A stretch of 64,000 nt of DNA. Origin: an uncultured Gammaproteobacteria bacterium (GTDB lineage: Bacteria > Patescibacteriota > Patescibacteriia > Magasanikbacterales > GWA2-37-8). The notes beneath the pieces are model-generated. The model saw only the letters and a program-made list of their open reading frames with translations, searched no databases and was not told the origin of the DNA. The stretch spans positions 332,537 to 396,536 of the forward strand of contig CAYHBZ010000002.1 in assembly GCA_964355175.1 (NCBI GenBank), in the 5' to 3' direction. A program made the translations under genes and the position numbers. Below are positions 54,090 through 54,255 of the stretch, piece by piece (the first letter of the stretch is position 1; each line of letters starts with the position of its first letter).

Positions 54090-54255
54090 CGGAGATATTT
54101 GATAATTTTTACCTGATAAAAGTTCGCATAATTGGCTATAAATTTTCGTTACGGCTCTAAGGGTAGAGCCGTTGCCCTACGGGGCACCACTCAAATTTAT
54201 TTAACGCCAATTAGGGGCTCACTTTTATGTGGTAAAAATTATCAAATATCTCCGG
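54090..54255. repeat. ~145-nt structured repeat (MITE-like / candidate structured RNA), copy 2
   Basis: Perfect 25-bp terminal inverted repeat CCGGAGATATTTGATAATTTTTACC / GGTAAAAATTATCAAATATCTCCGG. The internal hairpin GGCTCTA..TAGAGCC differs from copy 1 (GGCCCTA..TAGGGCC) by a compensatory C>T and G>A pair. Confidence 0.6.

Follow-up and report, generated by a model that had tools for sequence, protein, structure and literature searches.

The hairpin in front of ligA

The window analysed here is the whole 64-kb stretch of DNA, and within it a long hairpin of 171 nt (positions 54087-54257; the element region reads GCCCGGAGATATTTGATAATTTTTACC ... GGTAAAAATTATCAAATATCTCCGGGC) separates a prepilin peptidase gene from ligA. 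Its arms form a perfect 26-bp stem (54088-54113 with 54231-54256) where 0 are expected from 100 shuffles, the 26-nt arm occurring once on each strand, and at 95% complementarity the arms reach 37 nt (54087-54123 with 54221-54257; repeat finder, I4). RNA folding of 54085-54260 gives −87.4 kcal/mol, as compared to −38.6 ± 4.1 in shuffles (z = −11.9). No T-run or U-tract follows the stem of this copy. The sequence-only reading of this DNA had described the second copy of a structured repeat of ~145 nt with a perfect 25-bp closing stem, and both descriptions hold with slight corrections, as the element is somewhat larger (171 nt, with copy 1 at 46169-46354) and the stem measures 26 bp. The features referred to in the text are given here.

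46169-46354, + strand: copy 1 of the long-hairpin repeat, between an extended −10 box (TGGTATAAT, 46163-46171) and the corA ATG (46370); core at 46194-46328, 160.8 bits with covariance model R1
53276-54082, + strand: prepilin peptidase gene (Pfam A24_N_bact/Peptidase_A24), its stop 5 nt before the hairpin
54087-54257, + strand: copy 2, the whole hairpin with its copy-specific closing stem (inverted repeat I4, fold z = −11.9), missing at the orthologous site of L002/L003/L004, L005/L006 and L017/L018
54088-54113, + strand: left arm of the perfect 26-bp closing stem, its outer ~17 nt (GCCCGGAGATATTTGAT) copy-specific
54104-54239, + strand: conserved 136-nt core (inner P1, P2-P4, three-way junction, P5, P6), 157.9 bits and E = 2.8e-37 with R1 (alignments A4/A5)
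54151-54172, + strand: P5 hairpin with invariant loop UAAGGGUA and two compensated stem haplotypes in the family (pairs 80-99 and 84-95, CG/UA and UA/CG)
54173-54186, + strand: P6, a hypervariable 4-5-bp GC hairpin, with a C(UACG)G tetraloop in the ligA copy; 10 different P6 sequences in 11 copies, all paired
54231-54256, + strand: right arm of the closing stem, with a spurious GTG start (54229-54231) at its inner edge
54258-54294, + strand: 37-nt spacer from the hairpin to the ligA ATG, also missing in the relatives with an empty site
54295-56316, + strand: ligA (NAD-dependent DNA ligase), start ATG 54295, 673 aa (100% identical to P0001; N-terminal offsets of 120 homologues)

The longest ORF for ligA (695 aa) does open inside the element, at a GTG (54229) in the right arm that is in frame with ligA, as the ORF map shows and as had been claimed. 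This codon had also been taken for the annotated start, which it is not, since the public gene call (P0001) begins at 54295, precisely where the conserved ligase N-terminus (MTDLNKH) had been placed. A protein search with the 695-aa ORF returns P0001 as an identical public protein of 673 aa, i.e., one that starts at ATG 54295, while the 120 best homologues cover just 94-98% of the query, none of them aligning to the 22-residue extension or extending through 54229. A conserved YHV.NDP motif lies 21-24 residues from the N-terminus in 104 of these 120 homologues, and at 21 in P0001 as opposed to 43 in the long ORF. We place the ligA start at 54295 because of the length of P0001, the homologue coverage and the motif offsets. 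That the right arm encodes a genuine N-terminal extension of 22 residues is scarcely credible, for although the frame is open from 54229 and AGGGG stands 11 nt upstream of the GTG, homologues align only from 54295 on, their motif offsets fit that start, the extension is repeat sequence also present at non-ligA loci, and 22 stop-free codons arise by chance about one time in three ((61/64)^22). The GTG is no more than a chance open frame within the right arm, and the hairpin does not overlap ligA as publicly called. The consequence for annotation is that ligA starts at 54295 and that the ORF extension from 54229 is repeat sequence; longest-ORF gene callers would over-extend N-termini wherever the repeat lies upstream of a gene. 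At L015, one of the loci fetched for comparison, the longest ORF of the neighbouring gene also runs into its repeat copy (~4800-4845, start of a − strand gene).

Gene order around the junction is syntenic in relatives (pilM, response regulator, pilin, prepilin peptidase, ligA, PEP-utilising enzyme), and the gap from the peptidase stop to the ligA ATG is 2 nt in L002-L004 (LigA identity 88%), 14 nt in L005/L006 (81%) and 1 nt in L017/L018 (90%), as compared to 212 nt in the window. The site is occupied in L019 (GCA_040384245.1, LigA 89%), whose contig begins within the element, 105 nt upstream of ligA. Both window copies are unchanged in an independent ENA assembly (L001) and are therefore not assembly artefacts. 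The comparison shows the ligA-side element to be a lineage-specific insertion which occurred in the ancestor of this genome and MAG GCA_040384245.1, at the 1-2-nt peptidase/ligA junction. Having entered between the peptidase gene and ligA, the element now stands in front of ligA, and because it was inserted between genes that abut in relatives it is neither part of ligA nor a conserved ligA control element. The sequence-only reading had left two possibilities, and the first of these, an insertion that ligA expression must tolerate, is confirmed by the contrast between 1-14 nt and 212 nt. The second, a regulatory leader, finds no support, as the ligA leader is without the element in three of four related lineages (among the orthologous leaders only L019 has it, L002-L006 and L017/L018 being empty) and the element occupies more than 10 unrelated sites. 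The empty ligA and corA sites hold no pre-existing palindrome. No direct repeat of the kind left by target-site duplication is evident at the ligA, corA or recG sites, where the four-fold identity of 40-54% makes the sequences too diverged for exact junctions.

Copy 1, in front of corA, has arms of 45 nt (fold z = −13.0) and shares ~150 nt with the ligA copy at about 89-92% identity (46187-46336 vs. 54097-54247). The corA leader of L002 consists of the extended −10 box TGGTATAAT, then 6 nt, then the ATG, with no element; copy 1 is missing at corA in both L002 and L005, and this site is occupied in the window only. The spacing of the −10 box in L002 (6 nt before the ATG, ~3925-3945), as against its position at 46163-46171 in the window, suggests that the corA mRNA of the relatives is leaderless, and in the window the repeat would give this mRNA a structured leader of ~190 nt. 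Promoter and terminator scans around both window copies gave nothing above shuffled expectation.

A dispersed family with an invariant core and a copy-specific stem

The element, which has spread in a few uncultivated Magasanikbacteria, is named here the Magasanikbacteria long-hairpin element, family 1. When one genome of each GTDB species was scanned with a 21-mer of the core, this recovered nine more copies on seven contigs of the sister MAG GCA_943357105.1, whose ligA and corA sites are empty, and one copy in a Magasanikiibacteriota MAG from Lac Pavin; a loop-anchored pattern added one JGI metagenome contig with a copy and, since this was the only one, the family looks narrow in that collection. 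None of these 9 + 1 + 1 further copies is at a ligA or corA site, and the copy numbers, coming from exact 21-mer matches, are lower bounds. In total the family comprises 11 full and 3 partial copies in five assemblies, with an element size of 171-190 nt. Covariance model R1 (136 positions) recovers exactly the known copies at 141-162 bits and finds no diverged members over ~400 kb (the window and 31 fetched loci), its other matches being a marginal one of 21.8 bits on a hairpin of a second family in L031 (described below) and a chance-level one of 11.3 bits (E = 8) at 32092-32144 of the window.

Searches outside the family were negative throughout. Rfam 15 gives nothing at the gathering threshold, and at a permissive E ≤ 10 the best models are plant miRNA precursors at 34-36 bits (gathering 90-117), which match as generic long hairpins. 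Phage and plasmid collections gave no BLAST match to the element, scans of viral contigs gave 0 matches, and blastn-short with the 37-nt ligA spacer found no source for it. No transposase, parent IS or other partner enzyme was found in the window and the fetched loci, and we found no account of MITE-like or palindromic repeats in Patescibacteria/CPR in the literature.

Occupancy varies among orthologous sites, ligA being filled in the window and L019, corA in the window only, and the recG-radA intergenic site in L010 (Ike MAG) and L013 (Lac Pavin MAG) and empty in L030. As judged from ORF maps and Pfam-annotated synteny, at least 5 of the 11 sites lie between convergent 3' ends (L007, L009, L010 with its ortholog L013, L011 and L016), three lie between tandem genes (the ligA copy and L014 co-oriented, L015 antisense to both neighbours) and one, that of the corA copy, between divergent genes. 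This is not the site distribution of a gene-specific leader. P6 is 11-14 nt long depending on the copy, which rules out a maintained reading frame, and the element is non-coding; a small protein gene was likewise rejected, as the indels are not multiples of three.

Alignment of the 11 full copies (A4/A5) gives a mean column identity of 93% for the core, and 10 of the copies share an unbroken run of 41 nucleotides in its left half. Asymmetric and AT-rich (39% GC), the core folds, in order, into the inner closing stem AATTTTTACC/GGTAAAAATT, a 2x2 loop, P2, an asymmetric internal loop (UC-GC-A / GGG-GC-UC), P3, P4 and a three-way junction with P5 and P6. The P5 loop UAAGGGUA is invariant, and its stem comes in two doubly compensated haplotypes, ACGGCUC/GAGCCGU and AUGGCCC/GGGCCAU; the P6 loops include UUCG, UACG and GUGA as read on the + strand. 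Each copy has its own, essentially perfect outer closing stem of 10-30 bp, with A-tract/stem ... stem/T-tract outer layers in L007, L010, L012, L014 and L016. Only the inner stem AATTTTTACC/GGTAAAAATT is shared between copies, and terminal inverted repeats, by which a MITE is recognised, are not conserved.

Pairing is maintained across the family, with 96.9% of cells paired, double-sided changes in 31 of 74 pairs, and 0 of 500 shuffles matching any of five pairing measures, while sliding the 3' partner by 1-3 columns leaves just 38-51% (~45%) paired. Covariation is confined to outer P1, P5 and P6; P2-P4 never vary and therefore neither support nor contradict RNA structure. Watson-Crick pairs account for 784 of 813 cells, with 4 G.U and 2 A.C, the remainder being mostly beyond the ends of individual stems. 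A few single-sided P3 changes give G.U on the + strand, which along with the UUCG/UACG/GUGA loops of P6 hints at a constraint at the RNA level. In stems that look homologous, apparent indels are compensated on both arms (GACATTTGGC/GCCAAATGTC in L015 vs. GAC-TTTGG/CCAAA-GTC in L016), and the scarcity of G.U together with these two-arm indels fits upkeep of a palindrome at the DNA level, and less well slow RNA-level compensation. Quasipalindrome correction by template switching is a documented process (PMC7202029).

The recG-radA site is instructive for the closing stem. The empty site of L030 (RecG 86%) has nothing more than an imperfect, AT-rich palindrome, GGAATAAAAAATA-ACTAATTCAA-TATTTTTTTTAGTCT. 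Its outer part and the outermost stem layer of L010 are homologous, taking in the last codon and stop of recG (GAATAA) and, on the other side, TTAGTCTGTCAAC vs. TTATTCTGCCAGC. In L031 the same recG-radA centre holds another hairpin, of 207 nt and with a perfect stem of 31 bp, and L027, from the window's own species, ends 24 nt after recG within an apparent element of the second family. At recG-radA, then, the palindrome of L030 and the hairpin of L031 show that the outermost layer derives from the host and that the centre was colonised on two occasions. Since there is no palindrome in the empty ligA and corA sites, part of the stem arrives with the element or arises later, and targeting of palindrome centres is not universal. 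The family, then, spreads to intergenic sites, preferring convergent 3' ends, and its recG-radA copy is centred in a pre-existing AT-rich palindrome.

L010 and L012, which are different loci and differ in P5 haplotype, share on both arms a 17-nt inner-outer layer, AAAA[TC]AAAAACACCTTA, which suggests that stems can travel with the element; a search for an "empty" version of this L010/L012 stem found none. In the orthologous pair L010 (6660-6835) and L013 (1-72) the outer arms are alike at 22 of 23 positions and the P5 haplotypes differ (AUGGCCC vs. ACGGC..), a switch that implies that the core was replaced or gene-converted, or that the same hairpin received two insertions independently. L011 and L012 have ~35 nt of left flank in common, including the last codons of an ORF absent from L012, so flanks may also be co-copied with the element, although this case is weak. 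Two further ideas about the outer stems were dropped. An outer stem and 3' tail common to the ligA copy and L015 ("type B"), alike on visual inspection, gave local alignment scores below those of unrelated AT-rich flanks, and the idea that all outer stems are pre-existing terminators fits recG-radA, but not the empty ligA and corA sites; at the groEL site, also compared for this idea, synteny differs beyond groEL.

Family 1 accounts for two of the four long structured hairpins in the window. Set against close relatives, at least three of the four are insertions, and these occupy operon junctions and leaders (pilD-ligA, corA, cysS-pilM). The hairpin at 50874-51051 (z = −9.4) belongs to a second, unrelated long-hairpin family (family 2); its GC-richer core of ~120 nt is reverse-complement homologous to the 207-nt recG-radA hairpin of GCA_040384245.1 (12064-12270 of L031), and the closing stems of these two copies differ. 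The cysS-pilM gap is 290 nt in the window vs. 110-114 nt in L002 and L005, so the 50874-51051 hairpin is also an insertion. A hairpin of ~275 nt with 83-nt arms (63483-63757, z = −12.9) fills the intergenic region between smpB and the next gene, and is present in L002 and L019 and not in L005, as judged by gap sizes. Its apex, GCUGUUUGAGC-GAA-GCGAGUUCGGC, has the motif CUGUUUGAGC..GCGAGUUC in common with the family-2 apex and contains GCGAAGC, a very stable DNA mini-hairpin sequence.

Smaller features of the window are listed for completeness. Five direct and inverted copies of a ~30-40-nt unit (TGTCATTCTGAG..CGAAGAATCCCTT) lie at 31556-31631, 40461-40503 and 62942-63027, adjoining tRNA-Gln (40386-40457) and also just upstream of the tmRNA gene (62517-62915), and may be a small palindromic repeat of REP-like type. 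Three repeats of the 3' half of tRNA-Asp (59730-59792, 60611-60686 and 60974-61018, the real gene being 60612-60686) bracket a small GIY-YIG ORF (about 60697-60960), which resembles what a mobile cassette would leave on integrating at the tRNA. A group I intron model matches 15850-16062 right at the Rfam gathering score (50.6 vs. 50), between tRNA-Thr genes (14983-15170) and tRNA-Trp (17084), and an AdoCbl (B12) riboswitch model matches 38268-38401 on the − strand just above threshold (51.9 vs. 50), in a CPR genome.

Mobile repeat or structured RNA

The two pairs of orthologous copies allow conservation of the element to be set against a neutral rate. Between the window and L019 at ligA, four-fold sites are 48% identical, as compared to 52 of 55 nucleotides in the non-P6 core and 12 of 17 in the outer arm; between L010 and L013 at radA, four-fold sites are likewise 48% identical, and all 52 of the core nucleotides available are identical, with 22 of 23 in the outer arm. 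An identity of 95-100% in the core of orthologous copies, against 48% at four-fold sites, means that there is no neutral decay. The core is either selected or continually homogenised or replaced by active copies, and the haplotype switch between L010 and L013 favours at least some core replacement.

The reading that we prefer, with a probability of roughly 0.6, is that family 1 is a non-autonomous palindromic mobile repeat, a MITE/REPIN/ERIC-like family of CPR bacteria. It builds on what has been demonstrated above, namely the insertion at ligA, dispersal in multiple copies, presence/absence polymorphism, the non-coding nature of the element, its conserved fold and one case of nesting in a host palindrome. 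A trans-acting enzyme would copy the element, whose asymmetric and invariant core it would recognise in the shape of folded single-stranded DNA or a cruciform, and the closing stem would be kept complementary in DNA by template switching from arm to arm and/or by co-mobilisation of a host hairpin. Once transcribed, the ~170-nt hairpin may uncouple ligA from the upstream pilus operon, as a block to read-through or as a processing site, and expression of ligA would then depend on read-through or on a weak new promoter or start site in the 37-nt spacer. The 1-2-nt junction of the relatives, presumably co-transcribed and translationally coupled, is now broken by a very stable hairpin. A −10-like TATTTT does stand 7 nt before the ligA ATG in the window (TATTAT, 8 nt before, in L019), but this is a resemblance to the consensus only and is not listed in the promoter scan.

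Several observations count against a mobile repeat. Neither a partner enzyme nor a target-site duplication was found, the ends are not conserved, and with ~10 copies per genome the family is small. A core identity of 95-100% would not be expected of a decaying selfish insertion without ongoing gene conversion, re-insertion or functional selection. The P6 tetraloops and the P3 G.U on the + strand, as well as the fact that targeting of palindrome centres is not universal, also tell against it.

The main rival is a structured RNA module, useful to the host and copied to several places in the genome, with purifying selection on the core and with a closing stem and P6 that need only pair. It could be a long terminator, an insulator, a stabiliser of mRNA ends, a binding site for RNase III or another protein, or a small ribozyme. 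We consider this less likely than a mobile repeat, yet still a real possibility. The identity of the core is far above neutral (52/55 and 52/52 vs. 48% at four-fold sites), covariation in the variable helices is clean, the stable tetraloops of P6 (UUCG, UACG, GUGA) and the G.U of P3 are on the + strand, and most copies lie just past stop codons, where terminators sit, many of them with an outer stem of the A-tract/stem/T-tract form. RNA structure alone, however, does not require P2-P4 to be invariant on both arms and without covariation, and G.U is nearly absent (4 of ~790 cells). The L015 copy is antisense to both flanking genes, the ligA copy is without a U-tract after its stem, and presence varies among close relatives, whose empty sites show no need for the element. 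The differing P5 haplotypes of L010 and L013, lastly, fit copy replacement or conversion better than vertical conservation. Specific known RNAs were also considered and rejected: hammerhead and other known ribozyme cores mismatch in their junction sequences and are negative in Rfam, 6S RNA and SRP RNA are ruled out by the multi-copy state and the presence/absence polymorphism, and no reverse transcriptase lies nearby, as a retron ncRNA would have.

Somewhat more doubtful still is the view that family 1, the family of 50874-51051 and L031, and the 63483-63757 hairpin make up a distinct kind of CPR element, or that the core is a strongly selected new functional RNA (a ribozyme or a protein-recruiting module). 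In the former case the folded invariant core may be recognised as a structure. It may integrate at host hairpin tips, for example those of terminators, or take them over, and its mobilisation would occur where the composite hairpin has its base, which would explain the differing, perfectly paired and layered closing stem in every copy.

A cis-regulatory leader specific to ligA or to ligA and corA, e.g., a riboswitch for a shared cofactor such as Mg2+, is very improbable. It draws on the very stable structure and on the position of both window copies directly upstream of, and co-oriented with, corA (46370) and ligA (54295). The element is missing before ligA in L002-6 and L017/18 and before corA in L002 and L005, however, and with at least 5 of 11 sites between convergent 3' ends and the L015 copy antisense, only L014 besides the window copies is upstream of a co-oriented gene. 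Moreover, there is no Rfam match above noise, and a copy-specific perfect closing stem of 26-45 bp is unlike the architecture of an aptamer. This leader and the coding extension of LigA are both effectively excluded.

Comparison with known repeat systems

The genomes of CPR/Patescibacteria are tiny and tightly packed. Family 1 joins an almost invariant core to fast-changing, always-paired helices at divergences where silent sites are saturated, and it offers a test case for whether such an element persists by selection, gene conversion or continued mobility, and for which enzyme recognises its folded DNA or RNA.

The closest in general form are the ERIC/IRU and YPAL repeats, which are imperfect palindromes of 127-168 bp from enterobacterial intergenic regions, classed as MITEs (PMC3184786). 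Family 1 resembles them in its size, its non-coding nature, the imperfect palindrome that gives a long hairpin, its intergenic position and its occurrence at different loci in related genomes. ERIC and YPAL are often at gene 3' ends and co-transcribed, and can alter the fate of the mRNA according to orientation (PMC3184786). Unlike ERIC-type repeats, which have conserved ends, a TA motif and target duplications, copies of family 1 differ in their ends and conserve only the centre; there are ~10 copies rather than tens to hundreds, and there is no sequence similarity to ERIC (Rfam and BLAST negative). As compared to MITEs in general, family 1 is likewise short, non-coding, multi-copy and variable in presence, but it is without conserved terminal inverted repeats.

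REPINs are REP doublets that form hairpins and are mobilised by RAYT Y1 transposases (PMC3116915, PMC3333891). The likeness here is in the hairpin as the replicative unit, in the combination of conserved blocks with a part that needs only to pair, in the frequency of compensatory changes (PMC3116915), and in the vertical persistence of REPINs over long times with a likely single-stranded DNA hairpin substrate. The arrangement is nonetheless reversed, as a REPIN has conserved REP blocks around a variable middle and family 1 an invariant middle on a variable base. REPs are short, GC-rich inverted palindromes in hundreds of copies, while the family 1 core is AT-rich (39% GC), asymmetric and present ~10 times per genome, and so is not of the REPIN type.

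The Correia (CREE), RUP, BOX and SPRITE repeats of Neisseria and Streptococcus pneumoniae (PMC3184786) are also structured intergenic repeats of ~100-160 nt, found in 5' leaders or resembling Rho-independent terminators (SPRITE), that alter the expression of neighbouring genes. They differ in having defined terminal repeats or modules that stay the same from copy to copy, and family 1 is without evidence of internal promoters or IHF sites. IS1397/ISKpn1 and elements of the IS110 family insert into the palindrome centres of REP/PU sequences (PMC1525189), which recalls the recG-radA copy centred in a palindrome that survives in L030, and the second hairpin family at the same centre elsewhere. 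These, however, are autonomous elements with transposase genes, whereas the family 1 insert is a 136-nt non-coding core and the empty ligA and corA sites are without a palindrome. An integron attC site, with conserved R''/R' ends (RYYYAAC / GTTRRRY) around a variable centre and a place in cassette arrays beside intI, was rejected, since a conserved centre with variable ends is the opposite arrangement and the copies are dispersed after housekeeping genes with no array.

By sequence, then, family 1 belongs to none of ERIC/YPAL, Correia/RUP/SPRITE, the REPINs or the REP-targeting IS elements; in kind, it is a bacterial intergenic palindromic repeat with unusual features.
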